Program-made: the position numbers and the translations under genes
The notes under the pieces: model-generated
The model's database searches: none
The model's input: the letters and a program-made list of their open reading frames with translations, nothing else
What the model was told of the DNA's origin: nothing
Source of the DNA: Bacteroidales bacterium
GTDB taxonomy: Bacteria; Bacteroidota; Bacteroidia; Bacteroidales; UBA10428
DNA length: 64,000 nucleotides
Direction of reading: 5' to 3'
Assembly: GCA_016936215.1 (NCBI GenBank)
Contig: JAFGPL010000007.1
Coordinates: 12,448-76,447 of the forward strand
Shown here: positions 31,401 through 60,232 of the stretch, one piece after another
Layout: each line of letters opens with the position of its first letter
How positions within the stretch are numbered: position 1 is the stretch's first letter

Positions 31401-32474
31401 GTTGGCGCACGGCAGTTTCTTAACCTTGGTGAGTTATGGAATCCGACAACATATAACAACAACCTCGAAGGTTTACTGCAGATACTTTCTTATTACCGGG
31501 TTTGGGGTTCTGAAAGCAATGATAACAGCGATGGTCCCAACGGTACAAAGTTGCCTTATACAACCCTTCTGCTCAATTACCAGGCCCAGCCGTTAACTGC
31601 CAAAGTTAAGGTGGGGAGTACCCCCGATTCCATTAAACTCACTGCCGTGAGGTATTCAACATGTAACAACTGTCTGATAGGAAAAGCAGTGAAGGAGTCG
31701 AATATTACCAATTATTATCTTGGCCATGTAACCCCGGGTATGCTTGCTTTGAAGAAACCAAATGTGGTATCGAGGTCAGCAGTGGATTATCCCGCATTTA
31801 TGCCCGGTGATTCAATCGGAATGTTATTGGTGGAAGGACTGGCTTATGTTGAAAAACTTGAAATAGGTTATGTTTCTTCAAGTGCCCAGTTTTGTCCTGG
31901 TGTATTCTATACAACAGAACCTTTAGAGATCATTGATAACAATGGGCTTTTTGCCGCATCGTTCGGAGAGTTACCATCTCTTGGACAATTAAGCGGTAAA
32001 GAAATATCAGCCCGGCCTGACCAGGGCAATTATGGATGGGGATGCTCGCAGGAAGGAATGATCATGGACCAGAATATGACCATTGCTGAAGAAGGGGTAC
32101 AAGAAACCAGAATTCTAATTACTGCAGGTTATAAACCCGCAGGGGATGTATATGCATACAGTGATATCTATATCCACGACCTTCGTATTTGGGGTTCGCC
32201 CATTCATACCACCGGTGTAAATGACATGATTGTGAATGGCTCGGCAGATGCTAAGTTTTATATGCTGGGAACTACCAATATGTTGAAAATAGATGTGGAT
32301 GAACCTGTCAAGACGCTTGTAGTTTACAATATGGATGGCAAAGCAGTAAAGGTTGTAAGAGAGATATACGACAACCTTGTAAACCTTTCCGGCCTTAAGT
32401 CAGGTGTTTATGCTGTTCACTCTTATGGGGTAAGCGGAAAAATGTATACAGGTTCTTTTGGTAAAGCCAACTAA
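28434..32474 (+). CDS. very large secreted protein with five tandem InlB-B-repeat-like modules and a T9SS C-terminal domain
   Basis: 1346 aa with a signal peptide. The roughly 75-80 aa modules end in motifs such as GYGFDGWVDG...ITMDADKTIKPVF, YKFTRWIK...VIEVVF and GYGFSIWKPG...GNKIISPVW. The tail is VVYNMDGKAVKVV...GVYAVHSYG. Confidence 0.75.
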   Translation: MKNRTITNFAGAFIILMFAFAGFSNLHAQIVEKLIIYENFGGSVAGSSVSGIQPDTWPAVHADSGYHSGWYKSSQNLDNKGNNVDVPQFYGNGFFHIDSVQKYRTGGLSGLDITVDDFDKTWTRNVPFRNGYKMPLTSSTSLGIRLFGVAALPELSSWISYAPYTPVYLQNQTDESGYLYLGKNVGTQRPVITIPASDFEYLENISRMELLISGSRLGHNNTISVRTEELDSEGVTIGGDTLTFSASIEPRLISVPINKEYVRIYIQSWGSSNSNTTTDFALLDGNTKVDTRTPFNWNAIYCVKPTDGTINAGQTSNPGVSVHMIKIYAKSAGTGYTITTNNSLVTGTTTGIAYGQTVQLTAQATSGVEKFMGWKISGKPDLSEVVNPLNITVTSDMTIMPVYSGDMVEVPVVNENFTNWVQQGTTVELENNRLNFSNNPADPGAVLWTGTVKVPFRYGFTAWGKDSVNIMLNKCNVIPQYGPRVYNIPGSENYSGYVAFMGPNLDKGYVAVDSLTGITKTEVDVSSYDLPSPDRACAIKVNGSIVRNKTLRTLYPEQVIIDHNPASVTKLQIGPGNQARCEYLVPASPLASIDTGSSQVSAAAVALHNLKIYAAVTMPELNYYKLTMPAVSGGKISGYYPAPGNSTNHYIEGTKVTLTALPQQGYGFDGWVDGSNNPIGLDNPITITMDADKTIKPVFDQKPSYIKLIASSKGTVTTSIEPMEVRGDTMVFLAGVPVTLTATPVYGYKFTRWIKNSAEALVNPLTLTTLDMGKLVTNVIEVVFDSITTRETLSIANEAEKGEITFNHTPEDVVTVGDTTKYKFPSGETIEVSASPLYGYGFSIWKPGLDVVDADTANNPVSVIMTGNKIISPVWEPLPRKLLVIETVFNGSVTISDVHKDGELEQQGLWPENYYVELTLVPADGYMFSAMNAGVSYIPGEGNSVKVRMDQDTVKIAPIFTVFQPITLITENFQDASKWIEPEGNVSNVVGARQFLNLGELWNPTTYNNNLEGLLQILSYYRVWGSESNDNSDGPNGTKLPYTTLLLNYQAQPLTAKVKVGSTPDSIKLTAVRYSTCNNCLIGKAVKESNITNYYLGHVTPGMLALKKPNVVSRSAVDYPAFMPGDSIGMLLVEGLAYVEKLEIGYVSSSAQFCPGVFYTTEPLEIIDNNGLFAASFGELPSLGQLSGKEISARPDQGNYGWGCSQEGMIMDQNMTIAEEGVQETRILITAGYKPAGDVYAYSDIYIHDLRIWGSPIHTTGVNDMIVNGSADAKFYMLGTTNMLKIDVDEPVKTLVVYNMDGKAVKVVREIYDNLVNLSGLKSGVYAVHSYGVSGKMYTGSFGKAN

Positions 32475-32496
32475 TGATTTAACAAGAATAGATAAT

Positions 32497-32915
32497 AATG
32501 CACCGCTAAGACGCCAAGACGCGAAGATGAAATGGTAACTTCCTTTTTCGCGTCTTTGCGACTTAGCGGTAAAATTAAGAATGATGAAACAATAATGCAC
32601 TACCAGAACGCAAAGATAAAAATAGTGTCATGTCAATTGTCATACTGAACAAAGTGAAGAACATATTTCACGACCTAAGGGAGTAACTTTTCTCACGACT
32701 GAAAGGAGTAATCTTTATTCTTGAAATACAGATGTTTCGCTATCGCTCAACATGACAAAAGATGCTTGACTTGACACTAGGACTTTCTTTTTCGCGTCTT
32801 TGCGACTTAGCGGTTAAAATTAAACTGATGAAAGAATAATGCACCGCTTAGACACCAGGACGCAAAGATGAAATGGGAACTTCCTATATCGCGTCTTTGC
32901 GGCTTAGCGGTTAAT
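32497..32915. repeat. three tandem ~100-bp hairpin units; the middle unit is interrupted by a nested element
   Basis: Unit: ATAATGCACCGCTAAGACGCCAAGACGCGAAG...TTCGCGTCTTTGCGACTTAGCGGT, with inverted arms. Copies lie at about 32497-32580, 32592-32622 plus 32780-32835, and 32836-32915. Confidence 0.8.
32623..32779. mobile_element. MITE-like element nested in the loop of the middle hairpin unit
   Basis: Terminal inverted repeats TAGTGTCATGTCAA / TTGACTTGACACTA match at 13 of 14 positions. Internal boxes TTGTCATACTGAAC and TTCGCTATCGCTCAACATGACAAA are shared with the elements at 1789, 2793 and 63659. Confidence 0.65.
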
Positions 32916-33000
32916 ATTATCCTGATGAATAGTTTAGTATTAAGAGATTGATCTTAGATTTTAATATAATTGTGAAAGCAAAATCCATATAAACAATTCT

Positions 33001-34488
33001 GTGCTATTAGTATATAAATATTCCATAAATTTCATAACAGGATTATTCCTGTTTACATTGATAACTCCGGTTTTTGGCCAGACAAAAGTGTTCGATAAGG
33101 TTATTGCAGCCGATGGCACCGGTGATTATCCATCCATTGCTTATGCCATTAGCATGTACAGCAACAGCCGAAAAGTATTTTTTATTAAAAATGGTATTTA
33201 CAGAGAAAAAATTCTTATCAGTTCGCAAAAAACAAACATCCGGCTGATTGGCGAAAGCAGGGATGGCGTGATTATTACTTACGATGATTATGCGGGTAAG
33301 TCTGCATCAAGCACGTCTACTGCCGAATCTTATACTTTCAGGGTAGAAGGGGATGGGTTTTATGCCGAAAACATTACTTTTCAAAATACCGCCACCCAGG
33401 CGCAGGCAGTGGCTGTCTATACCCGTGCTGATACCGTTGCCTTTAAAAATTGTCGTTTTCTGGGTTACCAGGATACCCATTTTGCCGATAAGGGCAGGCA
33501 ATATTTTCTGAATTGCGAAACCCGGGGTGATGTGGATTTTATTTTCGGTGATGGCGCTGTTTTCTACGACCAATCTGTTATTGTTTCACGCAGCAGAAAA
33601 GCCGGTTACATAACAGCACCTGCAGATGCAAAAGTAACCAGCCCAAAAACCGGAGGAGGTACCAATTATCATGGAATCCTTATACATAACTGCGATGTGA
33701 TAGCAGAAACCGGTCTGGCAGATAACTCCTGTTATCTTGGCAGACCTTGGAATACCTATGCGGCATCGGCATTTATAAACTGCAGGATTGGTAACCATAT
33801 CAAACCGGAAGGATGGTCTGTCTGGACAACCGATCCAACGGGCGATGGGTATAATAACCACCTGACGGCGTTTTTTGCAGAATATAAGAGTATGAAGCCC
33901 GATGGGGGACTTGTTGATATTTCAAACCGTGTATCATGGAGCAAACAACTTGGTGATACAGATACTGCTCTTTACTCCATACCAGATTATTTTTTGGGGT
34001 GGGACCCCACCATTAAAACAACAGCCCTTTCTTCACCTCAGAATCTCAAAATTATTAATGATTCACTGGTGTGGGATGAGATAAGCAGTTGCAGGGGTTA
34101 TGTGATTCTTTGTAATGACAGTGTAATCGGTTTTTCAAAGTCTTCGTCCTTCTATATTGGACAGCAGGCTTCAGGAATTTTCACGGTTAAATCGGTTAAT
34201 CCTTTTGGTGCTTTAAGCAGCGCTTCGCAACAATTATTGCCCACAGGTACAAATAACAATCCTGAAATCAGCCCCGATATTATTGTATATGTAAACCAGG
34301 GGATGTTGTTGCTTCCTGAAAATTGCAATGCTGAAATCTTCAACATTACTGGAACGAAAATCAGGTCATCTGTTAATCAGTGCGCAATATCCCTGAATGA
34401 TTTGAAAGAAGGGGTCTATATTGTAAAAATATTGCCTGATCAAATAGGTACATGTATGGTTCGAAAAATTTTGTATACAAAAAACTAA
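33001..34488 (+). CDS. pectinesterase (carbohydrate esterase family 8) with a T9SS C-terminal domain
   Basis: CE8 motifs AQAVAVY, GYQDT, DFIFG and LGRPW. The tail is GVYIVKILPDQ...KILYTKN. The start is GTG, with no in-frame ATG upstream of the signal peptide. Confidence 0.85.
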   Translation: MLLVYKYSINFITGLFLFTLITPVFGQTKVFDKVIAADGTGDYPSIAYAISMYSNSRKVFFIKNGIYREKILISSQKTNIRLIGESRDGVIITYDDYAGKSASSTSTAESYTFRVEGDGFYAENITFQNTATQAQAVAVYTRADTVAFKNCRFLGYQDTHFADKGRQYFLNCETRGDVDFIFGDGAVFYDQSVIVSRSRKAGYITAPADAKVTSPKTGGGTNYHGILIHNCDVIAETGLADNSCYLGRPWNTYAASAFINCRIGNHIKPEGWSVWTTDPTGDGYNNHLTAFFAEYKSMKPDGGLVDISNRVSWSKQLGDTDTALYSIPDYFLGWDPTIKTTALSSPQNLKIINDSLVWDEISSCRGYVILCNDSVIGFSKSSSFYIGQQASGIFTVKSVNPFGALSSASQQLLPTGTNNNPEISPDIIVYVNQGMLLLPENCNAEIFNITGTKIRSSVNQCAISLNDLKEGVYIVKILPDQIGTCMVRKILYTKN

Positions 34489-36249: not shown

Positions 36250-37164
36250 ATGAAAAGAAAATCATTATTCAGTTTTTTTGCTGCTTTAATAGTAGCAGCA
36301 TTCGTTTCTTCATTGTATGCACAGGATACTCTGATCTTTGATCCTTCACTTCTTACTCCTTCTGACACAGGTTATTATGTAAAAGGGTATGATAAAACAG
36401 AAGGTACCCCCCCTGTGGTTGTACATTATGATTCATGTTCAAATGAATTCCAGGAGAGCCATCATTTTGAAGCCGATACACTTGAGGGTTTTTATTTTCA
36501 GAATGGGATGGTTATGCCCACCTGCCCTTCAAAAAACACCCCCTCCAATGTGTCACTGGGGTACATGCAACTTGGTAAAAGCATGGACCTCGGGACTGCC
36601 ACAGAAAAATTATGTGCACTTACTTTTCCACCAGTTCAAAATTTAATCAGCATCTATCTCGAGGTTTCGCCTGATAATTCGCCTATTCCGGCACCCGATC
36701 CCAATGAACGTCATATTTATTTCTATGTTGAATATTCCAAAGACAATGGCGACTCCTGGCAGGTAAATAAAATACACGATGAAACCCTTGATAAAGCCGG
36801 AGATAAGCATACTTACGATGCGGCAGGTTCATTTACTGTTTTTAACGAAATGAAAACAGCATCAGAGACCGGGCCAATTGTTATAAGGGTATTTACCGAT
36901 CCACAACCTGGCCTCAATCCTCAAAGATTGAGAATACATAAGGCCATGGTTATTGCCGATAAGGTTTCTTCATTAACTGATTATATTACCGATAATGAAT
37001 TTATAACCGTGTTAAATGGTGTCATTATTTCTAAAACCGGTACAGTAAAAGTTTATAATATACATGGGCAGCTCATTGGTTCCGGTGATAAGGTGAGTGT
37101 AAAGAACGGCATATATATTGTTGCATCAGAAGACGGAAGAACGCAAAAAGTAATGGTTCACTAA
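36250..37164 (+). CDS. hypothetical secreted protein with a probable T9SS C-terminal domain
   Basis: Signal peptide and C-terminus VKVYNIHGQLIG...GIYIVASEDGRTQKVMVH. No catalytic family was recognised. Confidence 0.5.
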   Translation: MKRKSLFSFFAALIVAAFVSSLYAQDTLIFDPSLLTPSDTGYYVKGYDKTEGTPPVVVHYDSCSNEFQESHHFEADTLEGFYFQNGMVMPTCPSKNTPSNVSLGYMQLGKSMDLGTATEKLCALTFPPVQNLISIYLEVSPDNSPIPAPDPNERHIYFYVEYSKDNGDSWQVNKIHDETLDKAGDKHTYDAAGSFTVFNEMKTASETGPIVIRVFTDPQPGLNPQRLRIHKAMVIADKVSSLTDYITDNEFITVLNGVIISKTGTVKVYNIHGQLIGSGDKVSVKNGIYIVASEDGRTQKVMVH

Positions 37165-37187: not shown

Positions 37188-37343
37188 CATTCCCCTTCCC
37201 CCTTTTTAAAGGGGGATACAGGGGGATTTCCCTTCCCCCTTTTGCAAAGGGGGATACAGAGGGATTTCTCTTCCCCCTTTTCTAAAGGGGGCGCAGGGGG
37301 ATTTTCCTTCCCCTTTTCTAAAGGGGGCGCAGGGGGATTTTCC
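37188..37343. repeat. four tandem ~38-bp hairpin-forming repeats (CCTTCCCCCTTTTnnAAAGGGGGnnnCAGGGGGATTT)
   Basis: Read directly in the 222-nt spacer before the next pectate lyase gene. Each unit contains TCCCCCTTT...AAAGGGGGA inverted segments. Confidence 0.85.
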
Positions 37344-37386: not shown

Positions 37387-39069
37387 ATGAAAAAGACGGT
37401 CATATTTTTAACAGGATTGGTAACTTTCTTCACTATGGGCTTATTTGCCCAATACCCCAAAATTACTTCCGAAGTAAAAAGAGCCTCTGATTCTTTACTG
37501 AAAGAGGCTGAGAAACTTTCTGATATTGCTTGGGGAAAAGCCTGGCCAAAGATTCAGGAAGAAGCAAAACAGGGTAAACCATATATCCCTTGGGCTGCAA
37601 GACCAACAGACCTGCCACAGGCCGAAATCCCTGTTTTTCCCGGCGCTGAAGGTGGAGGAATGTATTCTTTCGGTGGACGAGGTGGCCGTGTAATTGTGGT
37701 TACAAGTCTTGAAGACAGCGGTACGGGTACACTTCGTGATGCATGTGAACAGGGTGGGGCACGTATTGTTGTTTTCAATGTTGCCGGAATTATCAGGCTA
37801 AAATCGCCGCTTATTATCAGGGCTCCATATATTACCATTGCCGGCCAGACTGCACCGGGTGACGGAATTTGTGTTGCCGGAGAAACGGTATGGATTAACA
37901 CACACGATGTTGTCATCCGTCACATGCGTTTTCGCAGGGGTGAAACCTGGGTTGGTCGCAGGGACGATGCCATAGGGGGCAATCCGGTTGGCAATATTAT
38001 GATTGATCATGTTTCAGCCTCATGGGGCCTCGACGAAAATATGTCTATGTACCGCCACATGTTTGATGATGGTACCGGCAAGCCTCCGAAAAAATTGGGA
38101 ACGGTTAACATTACCATACAAAACAGCATATTTGCCGAGGCACTGGATACCTATAACCATTCATTTGGAAGCACCCTGGGCGGGGAAAACTGCAATTTTC
38201 ACCGTAACCTCTGGGCAAATAATGCCGGAAGGAATCCTTCAATAGGATGGAACGGCATTTTTAATTTTACAAACAACATCGTGTACAATTGGTGGCACCG
38301 GTCGGTTGACGGAGGCGATTATACTGAATTGTATAATATTTTCAATAACTATTATAAACCAGGCCCCGTCACACCAAAAGACAAACCTGTGGGCCACAGG
38401 ATATTGAAACCCGAAACCGGACGCAGTCAGCTTGGCCGCCTGGTATTTGGCAGGGCATATGTGAACGGTAATATTGTTGAAGGTTATCCTGAAGTAACTC
38501 AAAACAATTGGAATGGCGGTGTTCAAATCGAAGACCTGCCCGATGCAGGGGACTATGCCGATTATCTGAAATGGAACAAACCTTTTCCCATGGCGCCAGT
38601 GACTATTATATCTGCACAGGAAGCATATGAGTATGTTTTGTCCAATGCCGGGGCTACACTCCCGAAACGCGATGCGGTGGATGAAAGGATCATAAACCAG
38701 GTAAGGACCAACAGGGTAGACCTTTCACTTTATAAAGAAATTGATACCCTTTACCAGTTCGAACACCGGCGGCTGCAAAAAGATTCTTATAAATACGGTA
38801 TCATCACCGATATAGCGCAGGTTGGCGGGTACCCCGAATACTATGGCGAGCCGAGAAAAGATACTGATATGGATGGCATGCCTGATGAATGGGAGAAAAA
38901 ATATAAACTTAACCCAAAAGATCCTGCTGATGCCGTTCTTGATTGTAACGGCGATGGCTACACCAACATCGAAAAATATATCAACGGGATAGACCCTGCA
39001 AAGAAAGTGGACTGGAAAGACCTGAAGAACAATACTGATGTATTATCTGGGGGAAAAAGCATTCTGTAA
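37387..39069 (+). CDS. pectate lyase (PL1-like), paralog A
   Basis: FPGAEGGGMYSFGGRGGRVIVVTSLEDSGTGTLRDA, ITIAGQTAPGDGICVAG and IRHMRFRRGE motifs, plus a C-terminal DTDMDGMPDEWE...CNGDGYTNIEKYINGIDP module. Confidence 0.85.
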   Translation: MKKTVIFLTGLVTFFTMGLFAQYPKITSEVKRASDSLLKEAEKLSDIAWGKAWPKIQEEAKQGKPYIPWAARPTDLPQAEIPVFPGAEGGGMYSFGGRGGRVIVVTSLEDSGTGTLRDACEQGGARIVVFNVAGIIRLKSPLIIRAPYITIAGQTAPGDGICVAGETVWINTHDVVIRHMRFRRGETWVGRRDDAIGGNPVGNIMIDHVSASWGLDENMSMYRHMFDDGTGKPPKKLGTVNITIQNSIFAEALDTYNHSFGSTLGGENCNFHRNLWANNAGRNPSIGWNGIFNFTNNIVYNWWHRSVDGGDYTELYNIFNNYYKPGPVTPKDKPVGHRILKPETGRSQLGRLVFGRAYVNGNIVEGYPEVTQNNWNGGVQIEDLPDAGDYADYLKWNKPFPMAPVTIISAQEAYEYVLSNAGATLPKRDAVDERIINQVRTNRVDLSLYKEIDTLYQFEHRRLQKDSYKYGIITDIAQVGGYPEYYGEPRKDTDMDGMPDEWEKKYKLNPKDPADAVLDCNGDGYTNIEKYINGIDPAKKVDWKDLKNNTDVLSGGKSIL

Positions 39070-45116: not shown

Positions 45117-46079
45117 ATGAAACCTGTTAAATATGCACTGCTGACTATTTTGACATTATTGCTTTTCATATTTTCATGCTCAAATGAAAAAACAGTATAT
45201 ATTTTTACCTCCTTTCGCGAACCAGCAAACGAAGGATTGCGATTATTATACAGCCATGACGGTTACAACTGGCACCGGATAGATACCGTCTTCCTGAAAC
45301 CCGGTGTCGGTGCTCAGATAGTTATGCGCGACCCCTCCATTGTTCGGGGACCTGACGGTGTTTTTCACCTTGTGTGGACCTCCTCATGGAAAGGTGACCT
45401 GGGCTTTGGATATGCGAACTCAAAAGATTTAATACACTGGTCAGAACAGAAATTCATTCCGGTAATGGAATTCGATACCACCACGGTGAATGTCTGGGCG
45501 CCTGAACTGTTTTACGATGATGAAAAAGATGAATTTATCATTATCTGGGCATCTACCATCCCTTTTAAGTTTGAAAAAGGAATTGAGGATGAGTATAATA
45601 ACCACAGAATGTATTATACAGTTACCAGGGATTTTGAAACCTTTTCACCGGCCAGTCTCTTTCTCGACCCGGGCTTCAGTGTAATTGATGCTGTGATTGT
45701 AAAAAGAGAAAAAAACGATTATGTGCTTGTACTTAAAGACAATACACGTCCGGAACGCAATCTGAAAGTTGCTTTTGGTAACACGGCACTTGGTCCTTAC
45801 AGCGGTATTTCCCCGGCTTTCACCGATACCTTTACCGAAGGACCGACAGTGGTTAAAATTGAAGATGAATGGCTCATCTATTTCGATGCATACAGAGAAA
45901 AGTGTTACGGGGCTGTAAAAACAAAAGATTTTGTATCTTTTACAGATATTTCAGATGTTATCATTATTCCTGAAGGACATAAGCATGGGACGATTTTCAA
46001 GGTAGAAAAGAAAGTTTTAAAGAAATTGTTGAAGAAGATTGAGGAAAAGGCTAAGGCTAAGGCTGAGGAAAAGGAATAG
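45117..46079 (+). CDS. five-bladed beta-propeller glycoside hydrolase, GH43-like
   Basis: Lipoprotein signal (IFSCSNE) and motifs MRDPSIVRGPDGVFHLVWT, VWAPELFYD and TEGPTVVK. The 3' end (KAKAKAEEKE) runs into the hexamer repeat arm. Confidence 0.6.
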   Translation: MKPVKYALLTILTLLLFIFSCSNEKTVYIFTSFREPANEGLRLLYSHDGYNWHRIDTVFLKPGVGAQIVMRDPSIVRGPDGVFHLVWTSSWKGDLGFGYANSKDLIHWSEQKFIPVMEFDTTTVNVWAPELFYDDEKDEFIIIWASTIPFKFEKGIEDEYNNHRMYYTVTRDFETFSPASLFLDPGFSVIDAVIVKREKNDYVLVLKDNTRPERNLKVAFGNTALGPYSGISPAFTDTFTEGPTVVKIEDEWLIYFDAYREKCYGAVKTKDFVSFTDISDVIIIPEGHKHGTIFKVEKKVLKKLLKKIEEKAKAKAEEKE

Positions 46080-46631
46080 ATATTGGATAAAGCCCTGAAT
46101 TAAAGATTAAAAATATATAATTTGAATGTCATATAAGGATTTTACTGAAATGTCAGTCTGGCAAAAGGCATTTAAACTTTTGCTTAGAATTTATGATTTA
46201 ACCAAAAAATTTCCAAAGGAAGAAAAATATGGAATTATAGATAATACCAGAAGGGCTGCTAATTCTGTTACAAACAATATTGCTGAAGGCTTTGGAAGGT
46301 ATGAAAAATATGATAAAACACGGTTTTATAAAATATCCAGGGGAAGTGCATATGAGATAGTTAATCAGATAATGGTTTCTCATGCCTTAAGTTATATTAA
46401 CAATTTAGAAAATGAAGAATTGATCAAAAGTTACAAAGAAGTTATCGAAGAACTAGATATGATGATTAAATCCCTGGAAACATCAGACAGAAAACGAACC
46501 AGATATTAAAATAGTCTAAATCATGAAAATTATCAGGAGAATTTTAAATCTTTTTATAATATTTTTTCAATATTCTCAGAATAATATCCGTCATCTTAGC
46601 CTCAGCCTTAGCCTCAGCCTTAGCCTTAACC
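46047..46631. other. cassette A: a four-helix-bundle gene bracketed by inverted hexamer-repeat arms
   Basis: The left arm (AAGGCT)x3 GAGG at 46047-46068 and the right arm (CTTAGC/CTCAGC)x6 at 46595-46630 are reverse complements of each other. Confidence 0.7.
46126..46509 (+). CDS. four-helix-bundle protein (23S rRNA intervening-sequence protein family)
   Basis: 127 aa. The pattern VWQKAFKLLLRIYDLTKKFPKEEKYGIIDNTRRAANSVTNNIAEGFGRY...SRGSAYE is the hallmark of this family. Confidence 0.85.
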   Translation: MSYKDFTEMSVWQKAFKLLLRIYDLTKKFPKEEKYGIIDNTRRAANSVTNNIAEGFGRYEKYDKTRFYKISRGSAYEIVNQIMVSHALSYINNLENEELIKSYKEVIEELDMMIKSLETSDRKRTRY

Positions 46632-48424
46632 TAATATCTCACGCTCAGGATACAATCATATATACCGGCAGAGCACTTTCCAACCCCGATTTCCACCACG
46701 GCCAGCTTGCACCTGTCATTGGTGTTCATAACATTCAGGTGCTGCGGGCAAACCGTGAGTACCCTGCCGAAGCCGAAGACTTTGGCTGGACATACAACCA
46801 TGCCCCCATGCTGGCATACTGGAATAACACATTCTGGCTTGAATACCTAAGCGATTCGGTGGGCGAACATATTCCTCCCGGACAAACATTGCTTACAAGC
46901 TCTGAAGATGGTTACAACTGGTCAAAACCATTGGTAATATTTCCCAGGTACCGCATACCGGATGGAACCACAAAACCAGGCAAAAAACAGGTAGCAGAGA
47001 ACCTTTATGCCGTGATGCACCAGCGTATGGGTTTTTATGTTTCAAAAGATAACCGGATGCTGGCGCTGGGATACTATGGTATCTGCCTGCCTGGAAAAGA
47101 TTCACCCAACGATGGGCATGGTATCGGGCGTGTTGTCAGGGAAATATATTCTGACGGAAGTTTTGGACCGGTTTATTTCATACGTTACAATGCCTCATGG
47201 AATGAAAAAAATACATCATACCCATACTATAACTCGAGCAAAGACAAAGGATTTAAAAACGCCTGTAACGAACTGCTTTCCAGCCCATTGATGATGATGC
47301 AATGGGTGGAAGAAGCCGATCGCGATGATCCACTTATCCCTTTAAAGAAACAATATAAGGCTTTTAGTTATTATCATTTGCCAGATGGCAGGGTAGTGGG
47401 TTTATGGAAACATGCCCTCACCTCTGTGAGCCGTGATGATGGAAAAACCTGGGATTACCCGGCTGTCAGGGCACCGGGCTTCGTGAATGCCAATGCCAAG
47501 ATATGGGGACAAAGGACAACAGACGACCGGTATGTTACTGTTTACAATCCCTCTGTGTTTCGCTGGCCGCTTGCGCTTTCAGTCAGTGATGACGGTCTTG
47601 AATACAATAACCTGCTGCTTGTGCAGGGCGAAATCTCAACAACCCGCTATGGTGGCGACTACAAGAACTACGGACCCCAATATGTCAGGGGTATCCTTGA
47701 AGGAAATGGTACTCCATCTGATTCAAACCTATGGATTACATACAGCATGAACAAAGAGGATATATGGATAGCCAAAGTACCTGTACCCGTAAAAAGCATT
47801 GTTGAAGATGATGTTGATGAGATTTTTACTGAAATGGCAGAAGGCAAAGAACTTCTGAACTGGAATATTCATAGTCCGCTCTGGGCACCGGTGAAAATTG
47901 AAAAGCTGTCTGACGGGGGTAAAGCATTATCGCTTTGCGACCACGACAGGTATGAATATGCAAAGGCTGAACGGATATTTTCATCTTCTGAAAAAGGGGT
48001 TGTTGAGTTTACATTAATTGCGGCACAGGACAACAGGGGCACCCTGCATGTTGAACTTCAGGATGAAAAGGGTTCTGATGCCATCAGACTTGTGTTCGAT
48101 TCGCTTGGAAATTGCAGCATCAAAGATGGTTATCGTTATTCCGGAGTTTTTCATTACAAACAGGGTGAGGAATATAAAATCGCTATTTCATATGATTCAA
48201 AAACAAGATTTTACAGGGTGAATGTCAATGGTGATGAGAAAAAACTGGCTATGTTTTTTACCCCTGTTAAATCACTTCAGCGTATTGTGTTTCGCACCGG
48301 TGAACCACGACGGTACCCTGATACCGAATCGCCGGCTGTGCACGAAGAAGATTTACCTTTAGCCGGTATACCGGATGAGAAAGCAGTTTTTTATATTAAA
48401 ACTTTAAAAACAACCAGAAAATAA
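46523..48424 (+). CDS. Asp-box (BNR)-containing beta-propeller protein, sialidase-fold-like
   Basis: Asp-box-like motifs SSEDGYNWS, SRDDGKTWD and SVSDDGLEY. The N-terminal signal region includes SLSLSLSLSL, encoded by the cassette A right arm. Confidence 0.55.
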   Translation: MKIIRRILNLFIIFFQYSQNNIRHLSLSLSLSLSLNLISHAQDTIIYTGRALSNPDFHHGQLAPVIGVHNIQVLRANREYPAEAEDFGWTYNHAPMLAYWNNTFWLEYLSDSVGEHIPPGQTLLTSSEDGYNWSKPLVIFPRYRIPDGTTKPGKKQVAENLYAVMHQRMGFYVSKDNRMLALGYYGICLPGKDSPNDGHGIGRVVREIYSDGSFGPVYFIRYNASWNEKNTSYPYYNSSKDKGFKNACNELLSSPLMMMQWVEEADRDDPLIPLKKQYKAFSYYHLPDGRVVGLWKHALTSVSRDDGKTWDYPAVRAPGFVNANAKIWGQRTTDDRYVTVYNPSVFRWPLALSVSDDGLEYNNLLLVQGEISTTRYGGDYKNYGPQYVRGILEGNGTPSDSNLWITYSMNKEDIWIAKVPVPVKSIVEDDVDEIFTEMAEGKELLNWNIHSPLWAPVKIEKLSDGGKALSLCDHDRYEYAKAERIFSSSEKGVVEFTLIAAQDNRGTLHVELQDEKGSDAIRLVFDSLGNCSIKDGYRYSGVFHYKQGEEYKIAISYDSKTRFYRVNVNGDEKKLAMFFTPVKSLQRIVFRTGEPRRYPDTESPAVHEEDLPLAGIPDEKAVFYIKTLKTTRK

Positions 48425-52953: not shown

Positions 52954-54010
52954 TTTTTTGTTTATTCTTATATTAATTTCCTGTACAGATGATATTTCAT
53001 ACAGAGAAGGTATTGTTCTTGAAGAATTTATCTACGACACTGCCTCATTTCCATCTTGTCATGCCGCAACACTTGCTGAAACACCTGAAGGCCTTGTTGC
53101 AGCATGGTTTGGTGGGACATATGAACGGCATCCGGATGTTTGCATTTATATCAGCAGAAAGGTTAATGACAAATGGTCAGCGCCAGTTAATGTTGCTGAC
53201 GGGATTATAGATGATACGTTACGTTACCCTACATGGAACCCGGTTCTCTTTCAGATTCCCGGTGGAGACCTGATGCTGTTTTATAAGATCGGGCCCAGCC
53301 CTTCCACATGGTGGGGAATGTTGAAGACCTCGTCCGATAACGGTAAGACATGGAGCATTGCAAAAAAGTTACCCGAAGGGTATATCGGCCCTGTAAAAAA
53401 TAAACCTGTGTTGCTTGAAGACAACAGTTTAATCTGTCCTTCAAGTACCGAAGGGGACGGATGGAAAGTCCATTTTGAAATGACTACAGATTTTGGAACG
53501 ACATGGGAAAAAACAAACCCGATTAACGATGGAAAAATCTACAATATCATTCAGCCTTCTATACTCATTCACAAAAACGGCAATCTTCAGATCCTTTGCC
53601 GTAGCAGAAATGCTGTGCTTGCCACTTCATGGTCGAAAGACAATGGCCTTACCTGGTCGCTTGTGCAGGAATCAGGGCTTCCGAACAACAATTCGGGCAC
53701 CGATGCGGTTTCACTCGCCGATGGCAGGTACCTGGTTGTATACAATCATGTTAAAACCCCGCAAAATGCCCCAAAAGGTTACCGAACTCCTTTGAATGTT
53801 GCGCTTTCAAATGACGGTATAAAATGGTTCGCATCACTCATGCTCGAAGACTCCGAAATCAGCCAGTATTCATATCCTTCTGTAATCCAGTCTGCTGATG
53901 GGTTGGTTCATATAGTTTATACCTGGCGAAGGGAGAAGATTAAATATGTAAAAATAGATCCGCGCAAAATGAAAATGAAAGAAATAATCAATGAGAAATG
54001 GCCGGATTAG
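52934..54010 (+). CDS. sialidase-fold (BNR repeat) exo-glycosidase-like lipoprotein
   Basis: Lipobox ILISCTDD and four Asp-boxes: SSDNGKTWS, TTDFGTTWE, SKDNGLTWS, LSNDGIKWF. It overlaps the GH78 stop by 20 nt, or 29 nt if TTG 52925 is the start. Confidence 0.8.
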   Translation: MLHKLFNFLFILILISCTDDISYREGIVLEEFIYDTASFPSCHAATLAETPEGLVAAWFGGTYERHPDVCIYISRKVNDKWSAPVNVADGIIDDTLRYPTWNPVLFQIPGGDLMLFYKIGPSPSTWWGMLKTSSDNGKTWSIAKKLPEGYIGPVKNKPVLLEDNSLICPSSTEGDGWKVHFEMTTDFGTTWEKTNPINDGKIYNIIQPSILIHKNGNLQILCRSRNAVLATSWSKDNGLTWSLVQESGLPNNNSGTDAVSLADGRYLVVYNHVKTPQNAPKGYRTPLNVALSNDGIKWFASLMLEDSEISQYSYPSVIQSADGLVHIVYTWRREKIKYVKIDPRKMKMKEIINEKWPD

Positions 54011-54484
54011 CCACCAAATCACGAAAACACTAAATAACACCAAAATGATAAAAAAGAGTTTTGCACCAATTCCGGCAGAATTAGACAAAATAGGAAGAAA
54101 AATAGTAGATGCCGCATATATAATACACAAGAATCTGGGTCCCGGGCTTTTAGAAAAAGTATATGAATTGTGTTTTTGTCATGAGTTAACTAAACGAGGG
54201 CTTACTTATCAAAGACAAAAAGATATACCAATTATTTATGATGGACTTCAGTTTGATGAAGGATTGAGATTGGATGTTTTAGTAGAGGAGCAGGTAATTT
54301 GTGAATTAAAAGCCCTTGAAAATGTAAATCCGGTTTGGGAGGCTCAAGTTCTAAGTCATTTAAAATTAACAAATAAGAGATTGGGTTATCTAATAAATTT
54401 TAATGTGGTTAACATTGGTCATGGTATCAAGAGATTTGTGCTTTAATTTTAGTGTATTATTTTGTGATTTGGAGCTTTGGTGGC
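54010..54484. other. cassette B: a GxxExxY gene bracketed by imperfect inverted repeat arms
   Basis: The left arm GCCACCAAATCACGAAAACACTAAATAACAC (54010-54040) starts at the last base of the upstream stop codon. The right arm AGTGTATTATTTTGTGATTTGGAGCTTTGGTGGC (54451-54484) is its imperfect reverse complement. Confidence 0.6.
54045..54446 (+). CDS. GxxExxY protein (PD-(D/E)XK nuclease-like superfamily)
   Basis: The pattern IVDAAYIIHKNLGPGLLEKVYELCFCHELTKRGL...IYDG...RLDVLVEEQVICELKA...QVLSHLKLTNKRLGYLINF is the family hallmark. Confidence 0.85.
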   Translation: MIKKSFAPIPAELDKIGRKIVDAAYIIHKNLGPGLLEKVYELCFCHELTKRGLTYQRQKDIPIIYDGLQFDEGLRLDVLVEEQVICELKALENVNPVWEAQVLSHLKLTNKRLGYLINFNVVNIGHGIKRFVL

Positions 54485-54503
54485 AAAAAAAAATTAAACA
54501 AAA

Positions 54504-56875: not shown

Positions 56876-56940
56876 AAATTATATATGGTTTAACTATGAG
56901 ATACTTTTTAAAAATAAACATCCAGCTTAGTCATCAGCGG

Positions 56941-57037
56941 CAGTATGTCAGATAAAAAGCAACTATACAGAAAGCTCCGTAGGAGCGACAGTATGGTAGA
57001 TAAAAACATTTAAACAATAAGCTCCGTAGGAGCGACA
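56941..57037. repeat. two tandem ~48-bp units, each ending in AAGCTCCGTAGGAGCGACA with a GCTCC/GGAGC mini-hairpin
   Basis: Read directly. The unit CAGTATGKYAGATAAAAA...AAGCTCCGTAGGAGCGA occurs at 56941-56988 and 56989-57036. Confidence 0.8.
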
Positions 57038-57057: not shown

Positions 57058-58944
57058 ATGATCCATCAAAAAATCAAACAACTCCTAAACATAATTTTAA
57101 TAATTGCTTTGAGTTTTCCTCTGTTTTCTTTCGAAATATGGGTTTCTCCCGATGGCTGTGACACAAACCCGGGTACCAGGGAAAAACCTTTGGCCACCAT
57201 TCTGATGGCACAACGAAAAGCCAGGGAATTGAGACGGCTGAACGACCCACTTATAAAGGAAGGCATACAGATCATCCTGAAAAATGGAAGATATCAACTC
57301 ACAGAATCACTGATATTCAAGCCCGAAGATTCGGGAGTTGAAACAGGAATAACTGCAGTTAAAGCTGCATCAGGAGCACATCCGGTTATTTGCGGCGGTG
57401 CTCAACTGAAGGGATGGAAAAAAGTTTCGGGAAACATACCCGGTATGCCTAAGGAGGCACAGGGTAAAGTATGGATGGCAGATGCTCCTGCTGTTGGGGG
57501 ACGGATTATTGAATTCCGCCAGATGTGGGTTAATGGTATAAAAGCTATCCGCGCCAGCAACCTGAACGATGGTCCCTTAGACCGCATACTTTCTGTTAAC
57601 ACTGATAAAGAGGAAATGGTTATTCCAATTCCCAAAACCGATATCAAAAACCTTTCGCATCTTGAATTTGTCATTCATCAATGGTGGGCAATTGCCATAC
57701 TGAGGGTTAAAAACATAGAGAAAATGGGCGATAGCGCCCGTATCACTTTTCATCAACCGGAAAGCCGCATAGAATTTGAGCATCCATGGCCGGCGCCGTT
57801 TATTGACAAAGAAAATAACCTGAATGGAAATTCGGCATTTTACCTGGTAAATGCTATTGAACTGTTGAACCAGCCGGGTGAATGGTACCAGGATTTGAGT
57901 AAAGGCAAAGTATTTTACTGGCCCAGGCAGGATGAAGAAATGAGCAAAGCCGATGTTATGGTTCCATATCTCGAAACTATGGTTAAGATTGAAGGTCATA
58001 CTGATTTTCCTGTCTCTCATATTTCATTTATCGGAATAAATTTTGAGCACTCAACCTGGCTCCGGCCTTCACGTGAAGGGCATGTTCCTTTGCAGGCAGG
58101 CTGGTCAATTACCGATGCCTATAAGCTAAAAATTCCCGGCACTCCGGACAAGGCGGGCCTCGAAAATCAGGCCTGGATCGAACGCCAGCCTGCAGGGATT
58201 ACAGTGCATAATGCAAATAATATCATTTTTGAAAGATGCAGCTTCAGGCATATGGCTGCTACCGGACTTGATTTCATCAGCGGAACGCACAATAACCTGG
58301 TACAAGGTTGTATTTTTAATGATATCGGGGGTACTGCCATACAGATGGGGTTTTTCGGCTCTCCTTCGTTTGAAGCACACCTGCCCTATAATCCGTCAGA
58401 TGAAAGAGAATTGTGCAGGTACGAAACCATTTCCAATAACCTGATAACAGATTGTACCAACGAGGACTGGGGATGTGTTGGCATCAGTGTAGGATTTGCT
58501 CATGATATCAAAATTATTCACAACGAAGTAAGCCATCTGAACTATTCCGGCATCTGTGTTGGCTGGGGATGGACAAAAACCATAACATGTATGAAAAATA
58601 ACCTGGTACATGCCAATTATATTCATCATTTTGCAAAAAATAATTACGATGTGGGAGGTATTTATGCCCTTTCTGCGCAGCCCAATACCGAAATCAGCGA
58701 AAACCGTATTGAGCATCTTGAAAAAGCACCCTATGCACATATCCCTGAACATTATCAATACATCTATCTCGACGAAGGTTCTTCTTATATCAGGGTGTTG
58801 AACAATTGGACAGAGAAAGACAAATTCTTCTCAAACTCACCCGGCCCCGGAAATGAATGGAAAAATAACGGCCCGCAGGTAGATTCGGGGATTAAAGAGA
58901 AAGCAGGGATCAGGAAACAATATCAGGATATTATAAGTAAATAG
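57058..58944 (+). CDS. right-handed parallel beta-helix repeat protein (candidate glycosidase or lyase)
   Basis: The N-terminus IWVSPDGCDTNPGTREKPLATILMAQRKA is typical of beta-helix CAZyme-like proteins. Repeated ...N.I..N.I... coil signatures follow. Length is 628 aa. Confidence 0.55.
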   Translation: MIHQKIKQLLNIILIIALSFPLFSFEIWVSPDGCDTNPGTREKPLATILMAQRKARELRRLNDPLIKEGIQIILKNGRYQLTESLIFKPEDSGVETGITAVKAASGAHPVICGGAQLKGWKKVSGNIPGMPKEAQGKVWMADAPAVGGRIIEFRQMWVNGIKAIRASNLNDGPLDRILSVNTDKEEMVIPIPKTDIKNLSHLEFVIHQWWAIAILRVKNIEKMGDSARITFHQPESRIEFEHPWPAPFIDKENNLNGNSAFYLVNAIELLNQPGEWYQDLSKGKVFYWPRQDEEMSKADVMVPYLETMVKIEGHTDFPVSHISFIGINFEHSTWLRPSREGHVPLQAGWSITDAYKLKIPGTPDKAGLENQAWIERQPAGITVHNANNIIFERCSFRHMAATGLDFISGTHNNLVQGCIFNDIGGTAIQMGFFGSPSFEAHLPYNPSDERELCRYETISNNLITDCTNEDWGCVGISVGFAHDIKIIHNEVSHLNYSGICVGWGWTKTITCMKNNLVHANYIHHFAKNNYDVGGIYALSAQPNTEISENRIEHLEKAPYAHIPEHYQYIYLDEGSSYIRVLNNWTEKDKFFSNSPGPGNEWKNNGPQVDSGIKEKAGIRKQYQDIISK

Positions 58945-59550
58945 GGTTTCCCGCAGATAGCGCAGATAAACGCAGAGGATAATATGGAAAATTCGGAACA
59001 CAGAAAGGATTTGAAAGAAAATGAGATATCTTATCTGATAAGAGGGGCGATATTTAAGGTTTACAACACACTTGGTCCCGGTCTATTGGAATCTGTGTAT
59101 GTTGCAGCTTTGGTTCATGAATTGAAAAAAGAAAATCTGGATGTGAAAACCGAAGTACCGGTACCTGTTATCTATGATAATCAAAAACTGGATTTGGGAT
59201 TTAGATTGGATATTTTGGTAAATGACCTGGTAGTTATTGAAGTAAAATCAATTGAACAACTTACTGAAGTTCATCATAAAATTGTATTAACCTATCTGAA
59301 AATTGCAAACAAGAAACTTGCACTTTTAGTTAATTTTAATTCTGAAAACATTGAAAAAAGTATTTTCAGAAAAGTAAATAACTTATAATCATTAAATTAT
59401 GTCAATTAACTGTGTTATGAAAATATCATCTGCGAATATCTGCGCCATCTGCGGGAAACCTCTTTTAACAACATTTGCGAAAATCCGCGCCATCTGCGGG
59501 AAACCTTTTTTGACAACTTCTGCGTCAATTTGCGCCATCTGCGGGAAACC
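58945..59550. other. cassette C: a GxxExxY gene with one left arm and three tandem right arms
   Basis: The left arm GGTTTCCCGCAGATAGCGCAGATAAACGCAGA (58945-58976) begins one base after the upstream stop. Right arms at 59429-59460, 59474-59505 and 59519-59550 have 45-nt periodicity. The first right arm (59429-59460) matches the reverse complement of the left arm at about 29 of 32 positions; the second and third arms are more divergent. Confidence 0.75.
58984..59388 (+). CDS. GxxExxY protein (PD-(D/E)XK nuclease-like superfamily), second copy
   Basis: It shows the same hallmark as the first copy: IRGAIFKVYNTLGPGLLESVYVAALVHELKKENL...IYDN...RLDILVNDLVVIEVKS...VLTYLKIANKKLALLVNF. Confidence 0.85.
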   Translation: MENSEHRKDLKENEISYLIRGAIFKVYNTLGPGLLESVYVAALVHELKKENLDVKTEVPVPVIYDNQKLDLGFRLDILVNDLVVIEVKSIEQLTEVHHKIVLTYLKIANKKLALLVNFNSENIEKSIFRKVNNL

Positions 59551-60232
59551 TCTTATCTTACATTCGCTAAAGTTTTCATTAATTTTTTTATTTCTATTTA
59601 ACGGATATTTAACCTCATTTTCCCAATCAAAAAACCCCTACCTGAACTTCAGTGAAGATTATACAAATGTAATCACAGCCAGGTCTGCAAAGATTGTGAA
59701 TACGCTCGATATTGCCGATTCAATGAAATATTACCGGGTTCTTTCGATAATTGTGGAACAATACCGGAACCTAAGCGCTACCCACGATTTTAAAGACGCG
59801 CTCATTAAGCAAAAAAAAGATCAGAATATTACCGATAAAGATGCACAAATTAATTCGGTAAAAGATTCTGCCAATGCCGCGCTCTATCTTATGCATGCCC
59901 GTTTTCTTGCTGTCCTCGCTTCAGAGTTGGATGCAAACCAAATAGAAAAGGTTAAAGATGGAATGACCTATAACGTTATGCACAACACCTACAATGCTTT
60001 TCTGGATATGTTGCCCGAACTCACCGGGGATCAGAAACGATACATCTATACAGCCCTCTATGAAGCACGTGAGCTGGCTATGGACGAAAGTTCTTCAAAA
60101 GCAAAGCATGCCATGTTTGGAAAATACAAAGGCCGTATCAACAACTATCTGAGCGCCCAGGGATATGACCTTGCCAAACGAAGCAAGGAATGGCAAGAAA
60201 GATTGAAAAATGAAGACAAAAGCAAGGAATAA
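59399..60232 (+). CDS. exported protein, DUF3826-like (tentative); its N-terminus is encoded by the cassette C repeat arms
   Basis: The mature part (ARSAKIVNTLDI...LYEARELAMDESSSKAKHAMFGKYKGRINNYL) resembles DUF3826 proteins common in pectin loci. The only in-frame starts (59399, 59420) lie upstream of three ICAICGKP-encoding repeats. Confidence 0.5.
   Translation: MSINCVMKISSANICAICGKPLLTTFAKIRAICGKPFLTTSASICAICGKPLILHSLKFSLIFLFLFNGYLTSFSQSKNPYLNFSEDYTNVITARSAKIVNTLDIADSMKYYRVLSIIVEQYRNLSATHDFKDALIKQKKDQNITDKDAQINSVKDSANAALYLMHARFLAVLASELDANQIEKVKDGMTYNVMHNTYNAFLDMLPELTGDQKRYIYTALYEARELAMDESSSKAKHAMFGKYKGRINNYLSAQGYDLAKRSKEWQERLKNEDKSKE

Follow-up and report, generated by a model that had tools for sequence, protein, structure and literature searches.

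A gene cassette resembling rRNA intervening sequences, with inverted tandem-repeat arms, in a Bacteroidales polysaccharide locus and its relatives across phyla

Organization of the four-helix-bundle cassette

The window analyzed here is a stretch of 64,000 nucleotides from a Bacteroidales bacterium (GenBank assembly GCA_016936215.1, contig JAFGPL010000007.1), and its coordinates are used throughout. At 46036-46632, between a gene related to glycoside hydrolase (GH) family 43 and a BT_1020-like gene, lies an arrangement referred to below as the four-helix-bundle (4HB) cassette, in which a small gene is bracketed by two arrays of short repeats. Its plan is a tandem-repeat arm, a short spacer, the small gene, a second short spacer and a reverse-complement tandem-repeat arm. 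The components, including those shared with the open reading frames (ORFs) on either side, are as follows.

46036-46073, + strand: left arm, purine-rich, with (AAGGCT)n at 46047-46068; encodes EEKAKAKAEEK of the GH43-related ORF
46074-46125, + strand: 5′ spacer from the left arm to the start codon; holds the stop codon of the upstream ORF (46077-46079)
46126-46509, + strand: cassette gene of 127 aa, PF05635 / TIGR02436, the protein family of 23S rRNA intervening sequences (IVSs)
46510-46594, + strand: 3′ spacer; holds the ATG at 46523 of the BT_1020-like ORF
46595-46632, + strand: right arm, (CTTAGCCTCAGC)n, reverse complement of the left-arm unit; translated as LSLSLSLSLSLNL

Tandem Repeats Finder gives the left array as (AAGGCT)3.7 at 46047-46068 and the right array, at 46595-46632, as (CTTAGC)6.3 or alternatively as (CTTAGCCTCAGC)2.7. 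Pairing by the repeat finder joins the two arms over 38 nt with 82% complementarity, including a 27-nt core of 89%. Together with the PF05635 match of the enclosed gene, these results bear out a first-pass annotation of the DNA, which had described hexamer arms on both sides of a 127-aa 4HB gene. The RNA stem that it had envisaged is also supported by prediction: the minimum-free-energy fold of 46020-46650 is closed by the arm-arm stem (z-score -4.25), and the arm duplex is calculated at -52.8 kcal/mol, compared with -21.5 +/- 3.8 kcal/mol in shuffled arms. The stems of the arm pairs are strong, ranging from -33 to -61 kcal/mol. As the ATG at 46523 lies inside the 3′ spacer, the BT_1020-like ORF starts in the loop of the potential stem. 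Neither a terminator-like site nor a convincing + strand promoter was found in the 4HB cassette, the sigma-70 scan being uninformative for Bacteroidota. Comparison of the spacers revealed no cassette promoter or conserved leader, and the spacers are conserved only among close relatives.

An independent assembly from the same organism (a Logan contig) ends inside the right arm, ~110 nt past the 4HB gene. The arms appear to act as assembly breakpoints, and short-read assemblies may under-represent such cassettes. Exact-sequence look-up gave no evidence of a second copy of the 4HB protein, its matches being confined to the source organism.

The cassette protein

The 4HB protein matches PF05635 (23S_rRNA_IVP) over residues 8-110 with E 6e-33 and 113.7 bits (cut-off 33.8), and TIGR02436 (four helix bundle protein) with E 6e-30 and 103.7 bits (cut-off 24). 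Its match in the PDB is 2gsc, the pentameric XCC0516 (E 3.5e-16). No other protein matches it at 100% identity, the nearest homologue being 69% identical. Across 13 homologue pairs, dN/dS ranges from 0.03 to 0.33, indicating that the protein is under purifying selection and functional. A distant homology exists to Avd, the accessory protein of diversity-generating retroelements (PHROG 3206, E 8e-9; NF033474, E 1e-4), but the score of 22.2 bits against NF033474, the Avd equivalog, is far under its cut-off of 80, and the protein is not assigned to Avd. The likeness is restricted to this distant four-helix-bundle homology. No reverse transcriptase lies beside the 4HB cassette, whose neighbors are of the glycoside hydrolase type, the remaining window not having been searched for reverse transcriptase genes. 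PADLOC models of anti-phage systems match none of the three cassette proteins in the window, i.e., the 4HB protein and two GxxExxY proteins described below.

Arms follow the gene across phyla

Regarding the generality of the arrangement, 80 genome loci with homologues at 43-71% identity were fetched from Bacteroidota, Chlorobiota/Ignavibacteria, KSB1, Calditrichota, Chloroflexota and Marinimicrobia, together with one probably misbinned Thiohalospira contig. For each gene, the 200 nt upstream were aligned to the reverse complement of the 200 nt downstream. Nearly all loci contain a purine-rich hexamer array upstream (AGGCTA, AGGCTG, AGGCGA, AGGCAA and others) and its complement downstream. Among 76 cassettes, which come from at least seven phyla, three or more AGGCNR units are present upstream in 71, three or more complementary units downstream in 55 and both in 52, and the unit consensus in both arms is AGG-C(72%)-N-R(85%). 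In 75 loci, the median arm alignment score is 31; the corresponding value for shifted controls (373 positions) is 17 (Mann-Whitney p = 3e-28). Seen from the side of the repeats, the 620 kb examined contain 214 AGG-periodic arrays, of which 176 have the expected polarity and are no more than 300 nt away from a 4HB gene; an array of opposite polarity beside a gene was encountered once. A survey of this kind had been proposed in the first-pass annotation as a check on whether the repeats belong to the gene; the majority of the loci do have arms, and the repeats go with the gene.

Cognate arms match each other better than non-cognate arms (z 6.8; 0 of 10,000 permutations), an excess that stems from the unit composition common to both arms, genomic G+C content being a partial confounder; AGGCAA/TTGCCT in Prolixibacteraceae is a G+C-neutral example of a cognate match. 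In orthologous loci with dS above 1, the AGGC-type unit is retained where the spacers can no longer be aligned, implying that the arm sequence is constrained and not its complementarity alone. Other units are used by 4HB paralogues at ~30% identity (AGCAGGG, GTTTRAW and TCATTAGATAG), and the copies on cyanobacterial plasmids have (GGAGTCA)n, (AAGGGA)n, (GGGGAGA)n and (AGGAGATA)n, which range from hexamer to octamer. As periods of 7, 8 or 9 nt are found in other arm families, the suggestion that a hexamer period keeps the neighboring genes in frame fails as a rule and describes a local accident of the window locus.

One of the surveyed contigs deserves a separate remark. The second 4HB cassette of the contig labeled Thiohalospira sp. 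MAG (metagenome-assembled genome; 6185-6571) encodes a protein 90% identical to that of a Bacteroidales MAG, and its neighbors are homologous as well. The contig is probably misbinned; otherwise, a recent transfer between phyla would have occurred.

Cassettes with an unrelated cargo gene

Two analogous cassettes with GxxExxY genes had been listed in the first-pass annotation, and both were recovered, with arms at 54007-54040/54454-54487 and 58938-58981/59424-59467.

54007-54487, + strand: second cassette, with a GxxExxY / PDDEXK_3 gene at 54045-54446 and arms of the GCCAC(CACNAAGN)n type at 54007-54040 and 54454-54487 (-33 kcal/mol)
58938-59550, + strand: third cassette, with a GxxExxY gene at 58984-59388 and a left arm of the TTTCCCGCAGAT(NNCGCAGAT)n type at 58938-58981

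The right arm of the third cassette is triplicated (59424-59467, 59476-59511 and 59519-59550), and the arm pair 58938-58981/59424-59467 is calculated at -61 kcal/mol. The start codon of its gene is probably TTG 59011, because the homologues are 125 aa long. The two proteins score 136 and 130 bits against TIGR04256 (cut-off 35) and 131 and 128 bits against PF13366 (cut-off 22). A metagenome scan with a GxxExxY alignment produced >600 matches, and 80 loci among the matches listed were analyzed. Arm scores of at least 26 were obtained at 57 of these 80 loci, compared with 4 of 160 controls. In these arms, GCCAC or ACCAC stands on the outside and tandem units of ~8 nt, (CACNAAGN)n, come next, with the complement downstream. 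Homologues of the third-cassette protein with 70-88% identity have TTTCCCGCAGAT(NNCGCAGAT)n arms in all five unrelated contexts, one of which (L168) is the GH141/DUF3826 context of the third cassette itself. A scan of viral contigs with the second GxxExxY protein found nothing. Taken with the 4HB families, these comparisons show that, at the level of sequence, the arm unit follows the protein subfamily and is conserved among phyla, with at least three protein subfamilies each having its own unit. The question raised in the first-pass annotation, whether arm sequences are cassette-specific or shared, thus has a divided answer: arms are not private to each cassette, and what is specific is the unit of a subfamily, which is common across phyla.

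The DUF3826 ORF downstream of the third cassette (59399-60232) has its only opening ATG upstream of the triplicated right arm, and its first ~50 codons translate the arms into CAICGKP repeats, which account for a false Zn-ribbon match. L168, the orthologous locus, has an ATG after the arm, and the equivalent codon in the window is ATC (59555). Either the ATC at 59555 is used as a start or the arms are translated.

A discrete unit between co-directional genes

The extent of the element is delimited by two loci, L012 and L015, in which the 4HB proteins are 90% identical and the gene contexts are unrelated. DNA homology between them starts with the first left-arm unit and stops with the last right-arm unit, which indicates that the arms are part of the element and not made from the target, in agreement with the discrete cassette that had been proposed. 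The 76 cassettes are found in at least 35 different gene contexts, including sugar kinase operons, the E1-beta/E2 genes of 2-oxoacid dehydrogenase, ABC ATPase/permease pairs and a dihydropyrimidine-dehydrogenase-like gene. Some sites are kept across a whole family, as in 15 loci between a sugar kinase and its downstream neighbor, implying long vertical retention. Between co-directional neighbors, 57 of the 4HB cassettes are in sense and 6 in antisense orientation; for the GxxExxY cassettes, the numbers are 40 and 2.

The left arm usually starts 0-10 nt past the upstream stop codon, and the right arm ends 3-15 nt ahead of the downstream ribosome-binding site or start codon. An arm overlaps a neighboring ORF at about one-fifth of the loci on the left and one-seventh on the right, and some of these overlaps are over-extended ORF calls. 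Therefore, the absorption of both arms into the neighbors, as described in the first-pass annotation, holds for the window locus and is an exception elsewhere, where arms mostly lie between stop codon and ribosome-binding site; at the window locus, it arose by accident when the cassette inserted. A role of this placement in ribosome shunting, or in re-initiation beyond the stem, was considered and rejected as unsupported, because stop codons and ribosome-binding sites would abut the stem base through insertion into short intercistronic spacers.

Insertion into the polysaccharide locus

The genes on either side of the 4HB cassette are as follows.

45117-46079, + strand: upstream neighbor, GH43-related gene; its 3′ end enters the left arm; synteny with loci L082-L084
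46523-48424, + strand: downstream neighbor, BT_1020-like gene for a beta-propeller/carbohydrate-binding-module protein; its 5′ end crosses the right arm

The two arm overlaps reported in the first-pass annotation can both be retraced. The GH43-related ORF terminates with ...KKIEEKAKAKAEEKE (also given as ...EEKAKAKAEEKE) within the left arm, which supplies its last codons. The BT_1020-like ORF reads ...NNIRHLSLSLSLSLSLNLISHAQD across the right arm, the arm portion being LSLSLSLSLSLNL, in the signal-peptide region. The ATG at 46523 is the sole canonical start in this frame following the preceding stop, and the deposited protein P0121 (633 aa) is identical to the ORF over its full length (100% identity, 100% coverage), from which it follows that P0121 uses the same start.

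Comparison with orthologous loci, which had been named as a check, revealed syntenic polysaccharide utilization loci (PULs; L082-L086) without the 4HB gene, in which the nearest BT_1020-like proteins (77-69% identity) are encoded. The syntenic order is DUF6298, apiosidase, GH43-related, BT_1020-like, MGH1-like GH and rhamnosidase genes. The GH43-related and BT_1020-like genes are adjacent in the orthologous loci, separated by gaps of 149, 320 and 112 nt with the 4HB gene absent, and in P0124 and P0125 the two are fused into one protein of ~900 aa. Orthologous GH43-related proteins stop 7-8 codons sooner (...KDFQSER*) and have no arm-encoded tail. The array in the window begins at the position of the orthologues' stop codon, suggesting that the C-terminal tail of the GH43-related protein is a by-product of the insertion. 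On the other side, all BT_1020-like homologues have a signal peptide of 20-30 aa ending in ...AQD(T/I), and in the window the arm-encoded (LS)n immediately precedes ISHAQD. DNA alignment of the window with orthologous loci is ambiguous over the signal-peptide region, and the 24 codons before the right arm may be ancestral or recruited from the cassette. At the level of locus comparison, it is shown that the 4HB cassette was acquired in this lineage at the GH43-related/BT_1020-like junction of a rhamnogalacturonan-II-type polysaccharide locus, where it clipped the stop codon of the GH43-related gene and is situated in the stretch of the BT_1020-like gene that encodes the signal peptide. A different fusion, of BT_1020-like and MGH1-like glycosidase parts into ~1100 aa, is found in P0128, P0131 and similar proteins.

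The corresponding spacers of L084-L086 contain short tandem-repeat tracts only, without a significant fold. In those of L082 and L083 (3856-4000 in each) there is a hairpin without a gene, whose arms, TTGCGAAACT... / ...AGTTTCGCA, belong to a different family and whose fold z-scores are -5.4 and -2.7, respectively. The GH43-related/BT_1020-like intercistronic site thus seems to be repeatedly colonized by different hairpin elements.

Gene-less hairpins

Hairpins with cassette-type arms and no gene are present in the window as well.

32502-32911, + strand: gene-less hairpins with GxxExxY-type arms (ACCGCTAAGACGCCAAGACGCGAAG / complement), at 32502-32570 and 32841-32911, with a split pair at 32599-32620 / 32784-32814

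These three elements share a spacer of 526 nt (32475-33000) between the genes at 28434-32474 and 33001-34488. The hairpin at 32502-32570 (-40 kcal/mol) holds a mini-frame, ATG-AAA-TGG-TAA, in its loop, at the expected place of the gene. Judging from their arms and this frame, the gene-less hairpins of the window look like internal-deletion derivatives of cassettes. A gene-less hairpin with 4HB-type arms was found in L029 (5470-5525), and in L006 and L178 an additional local hairpin stands beside the gene.

Comparison with known systems

The closest known elements are the ORF-containing IVSs of 23S rRNA in Leptospira, Coxiella burnetii, Brucella and Xanthomonas. These have the same S23p / PF05635 ORF in the loop, a long stem formed by flanking inverted repeats, short tandem repeats in the arms, a sporadic distribution suggesting horizontal spread, and forms with and without the ORF. 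The IVS-like architecture recognized in the first-pass annotation is therefore apt, the window cassette having a PF05635 ORF in the loop and 38-nt arms of tandem repeats. By definition, a 23S rRNA IVS lies within the 23S rRNA gene, where it replaces the tip of helix 9, 25 or 45. The window cassette lies outside rRNA, between protein genes of an operon, and consequently falls outside the strict definition of an IVS; the window has no match in Rfam, and no rRNA similarity was found in the window or in 166 related loci. The IVS of Coxiella contains an S23p ORF and two to three tandem GACAGAT heptamers at its 5′ side, whose number varies by strain, and RNase III cuts at the first heptamer repeat (PMC4990558). 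In contrast to the decaying ORF of Coxiella, the 4HB gene here is under purifying selection. Excision by RNase III would be harmful at the window locus, and the same cassette design also carries the unrelated GxxExxY family.

Repetitive extragenic palindromic (REP) sequences and REPINs, together with their associated RAYT genes, show a likeness of another kind, namely a small gene with family-specific inverted repeats, gene-less intergenic hairpins and a repeat type tied to the gene subfamily. However, the genes here belong to PF05635 or PF13366 and have no Y1-transposase (IS200/IS605-type) domain, so that the cassettes fall outside the REP/RAYT group. In addition, their arms are tandem arrays of 6-9 nt units and not a single palindrome, and they can have many gene-bearing copies per genome. 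With inverted ends present and both a direct duplication and a transposase absent, the cassettes also do not qualify as insertion sequences or as MITEs (miniature inverted-repeat transposable elements).

Intergenic tandem arrays of 6-9 nt units are likewise a feature of the heptamer-type repeats, which comprise the short tandemly repeated repetitive (STRR) sequences of cyanobacteria, GGGAATC of Xanthomonas and TAACTGA of Beggiatoaceae, Bacteroidetes and cyanobacteria. In Xanthomonas, 70-75 GGGAATC arrays form convergent inverted pairs (PMC4692102), and TAACTGA arrays are frequently located just upstream of start codons (PMC4679880). Unlike the present arrays, these repeats are not linked to PF05635 or PF13366 genes in the papers describing them.

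23S_rRNA_IVP genes within cas operons, for example between cmr2 and cmr3, have been taken as a functional association (PMC3936711). In a Picosynechococcus plasmid with the cmr2/cmr3 arrangement (L185), the 4HB gene is flanked by inverted arms, (AGGAGATA)n / (TATCTCCT)n. From their repeats, this gene and that between cas6 and cas4 in a Pseudanabaena plasmid (L186) look like insertions of the cassette type described here, as opposed to the proposed functional link. A full-text literature search found no published account of the cassette architecture, subscription papers and database family notes being outside its scope; the remark in the first-pass annotation that no formal description was known agrees with this. 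The comparisons made here show, as far as sequence can, a large cross-phylum class of IVS-like cassettes that are placed in sense within operons, have gene-less derivatives and carry two unrelated cargo families.

Proposed mechanism and alternatives

The reading favored here, with a probability of roughly 0.6, is that 46036-46632 represents a single copy of a compact, ~0.6-kb gene cassette whose arms are borne by the element and not derived from the target, the formation of an RNA stem and the recognition of the arms by the encoded protein being taken jointly. The cassette would be transcribed within the host operon, as suggested by its sense orientation, the lack of a terminator and the lack of a convincing promoter. 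In the transcript, the arms could zip in any register into a stem of 25-40 bp with the gene looped out. The same arrangement is a substrate of RNase III in the ORF-carrying 23S rRNA IVSs, and by analogy cleavage here is putative. The encoded protein, a pentameric 4HB protein or a PD-(D/E)XK GxxExxY protein, would most likely recognize its own arm repeats as RNA, DNA or both, since the repeat unit differs from one protein subfamily to the next yet is maintained from phylum to phylum, and such self-recognition may underlie the persistence or movement of the cassette. The wider proposition, that a cross-phylum superfamily of self-recognizing stem-loop cassettes exists in which a small protein binds its own arms (DNA or RNA) and moves or maintains the unit, is put forward only tentatively.

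Several observations weigh against the favored reading. Neither a target-site duplication nor a conserved junction motif was found in 54 loci, no transposase was seen, the 4HB gene being the only gene in the cassette, and no identical copies of the window protein were seen elsewhere, so that any recent movement is putative. Some loci depart from the plan: L171-L173, which represent one context, have arms of opposite polarity, L179, L180 and L182 have one arm or none, and in L186 the 14 copies of CTAAAAG are in direct orientation, an inverted copy lying further upstream. L179 and L180, plasmids gamma and alpha of Nostoc sp. PCC 7120, encode an identical 4HB protein (WP_010994075.1), each beside a transposase gene, with a (CTCTGCC)n array downstream only and the matching left arm absent. 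Signs of selection on RNA pairing are also missing, as transition mismatches that leave G·U pairs in the sense strand are not enriched (95 vs 84 in 4HB arms, 90 vs 107 in GxxExxY arms), transversion mismatches are common, and unit variants do not succeed one another in mirrored order in the two arms (mean z 0.12 under hexamer-order shuffling). A claim of base-pair covariation was dropped, since shuffling of unit order gave no signal. That the arms are complementary may need no explanation beyond a single motif being arrayed in opposite directions in the two. A helix of tandem units pairs in any register and would tolerate these mismatch and order results; a model in which any stem will do is insufficient, because the unit is conserved and subfamily-specific. 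At the window locus, moreover, an RNase III cut in the stem would sever the ATG at 46523 from the body of the BT_1020-like ORF, and pairing of the arms would face competition from ribosomes, both arms being translated. The suggestion in the first-pass annotation that the stem insulates the transcript is therefore doubtful here, and any processing would be costly.

Much of this evidence bears on an alternative in which the arms act as DNA, as terminal inverted arrays of protein-binding sites for excision, integration or recombination by the cassette protein or a trans factor, comparable to transposon ends or to the REP sequences flanking RAYT genes, the RNA stem being incidental. A conserved, subfamily-specific unit, the lack of G·U bias and of mirrored unit order, gene-less derivatives as known for MITEs or REPINs, a homology unit that stops at the arms, and the PD-(D/E)XK nuclease fold of the GxxExxY proteins (PMC3424549) all fit it. 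Nevertheless, the missing target-site duplication and conserved junction in the 54 loci tell against it as well, the cassette has no recognizable transposase or recombinase, and no catalytic motif is known in the 4HB protein. Save for the one protein on the two Nostoc plasmids beside transposases, no two sites have identical copies, and the bona fide 23S rRNA relatives are processed as RNA (PMC4990558). A purely DNA-level role is accordingly regarded as rather unlikely, although it is the strongest of the alternatives.

The stem-loop could instead be a domesticated host device that governs how stable the PUL mRNA is or how it is processed, in the manner of REP elements or RNase III sites, with the gene as a passenger. 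The very stable gene-less hairpins of a different type at the orthologous PUL site (z -5.4 in L082 and -2.7 in L083), the retention of a cassette at one site throughout a family, as in the 15 sugar-kinase loci, and the abutment of arms on the upstream stop codon and downstream ribosome-binding site fit such a device. It is nonetheless improbable, given that the gene is under strong purifying selection and moves with its arms, that the contexts are dozens of unrelated operons, and that many orthologous loci have no cassette, L084-L086 lacking a significant fold and some relatives having fused neighbors. Derivation of the arms from the target, the gene having entered the loop of a pre-existing intercistronic hairpin as IVSs do at rRNA helix tips, is considered very improbable. 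Gene-less hairpins with tandem-repeat arms do occur in intergenic spacers, and rRNA insertions sit at the tops of stem-loops (PMC11270868), but the arm unit is bound to the protein subfamily across unrelated contexts and phyla, cassette homology between contexts takes in the arms, and the window hairpin with the ATG-AAA-TGG-TAA mini-frame looks like an internal deletion. That ordinary microsatellites happen by chance to lie on both sides of the gene has a negligible probability; other partnerless short arrays exist in the window, such as that at 833-913, but the placement, polarity and recurrence of the arms are far from chance, and the locus surveys refute this explanation.

Implications

To our knowledge, proteins of PF05635 and PF13366 have remained without an assigned function since 1993, when the first report of an IVS ORF appeared. 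For these proteins, of which there are thousands in metagenomes, the subfamily-specific arms provide a concrete hypothesis, namely that each protein recognizes its own arms. The cassettes connect three phenomena that have been treated separately: rRNA IVSs, intergenic hairpin repeats and short tandem arrays of the heptamer type. If the superfamily proposed above exists, the same class would explain ORF-carrying rRNA IVSs, gene-less intercistronic hairpins and the "cas-associated" IVS proteins, and would cover at least part of the STRR-like heptamer arrays in cyanobacteria, Xanthomonas and Bacteroidota. For annotation, the rule would be that such genes in cas, nuo or PUL operons are insertions and not functional partners of their neighbors. 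The cassettes may be a source of long-range RNA structure within operons, and their insertion can rewrite the ends of neighboring proteins, having added here a C-terminal tail and part of a signal peptide.

Other repeats in the window

Further repeats were noted in the window. The (AGCAGTGGCAGG)6.5 array at 833-913 starts at the stop codon of the ORF ending at 837 and has no inverted partner within 1.5 kb; a CAGTGGCAGGAGCAG tract resembling it is present in an orthologous PUL spacer, at about 3890-3910 of L084. The 32-nt inverted repeat 2783-2814 / 2936-2967, whose halves are 88% complementary and separated by 121 nt, bears no relation to the arm families of the cassettes. Between the genes at 36250-37164 and 37387-39069, the spacer 37189-37340 is filled by four tandem units of 38 nt, each with a CCCCCTTTT..AAAGGGGG hairpin. 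Upstream of the GH141 gene at 57058, a 47-nt tandem repeat of 2.1 copies (56936-57037) contains GCTCCGTAGGAGC palindromes and GACAGTATGG(C/T)AGATAAA motifs.

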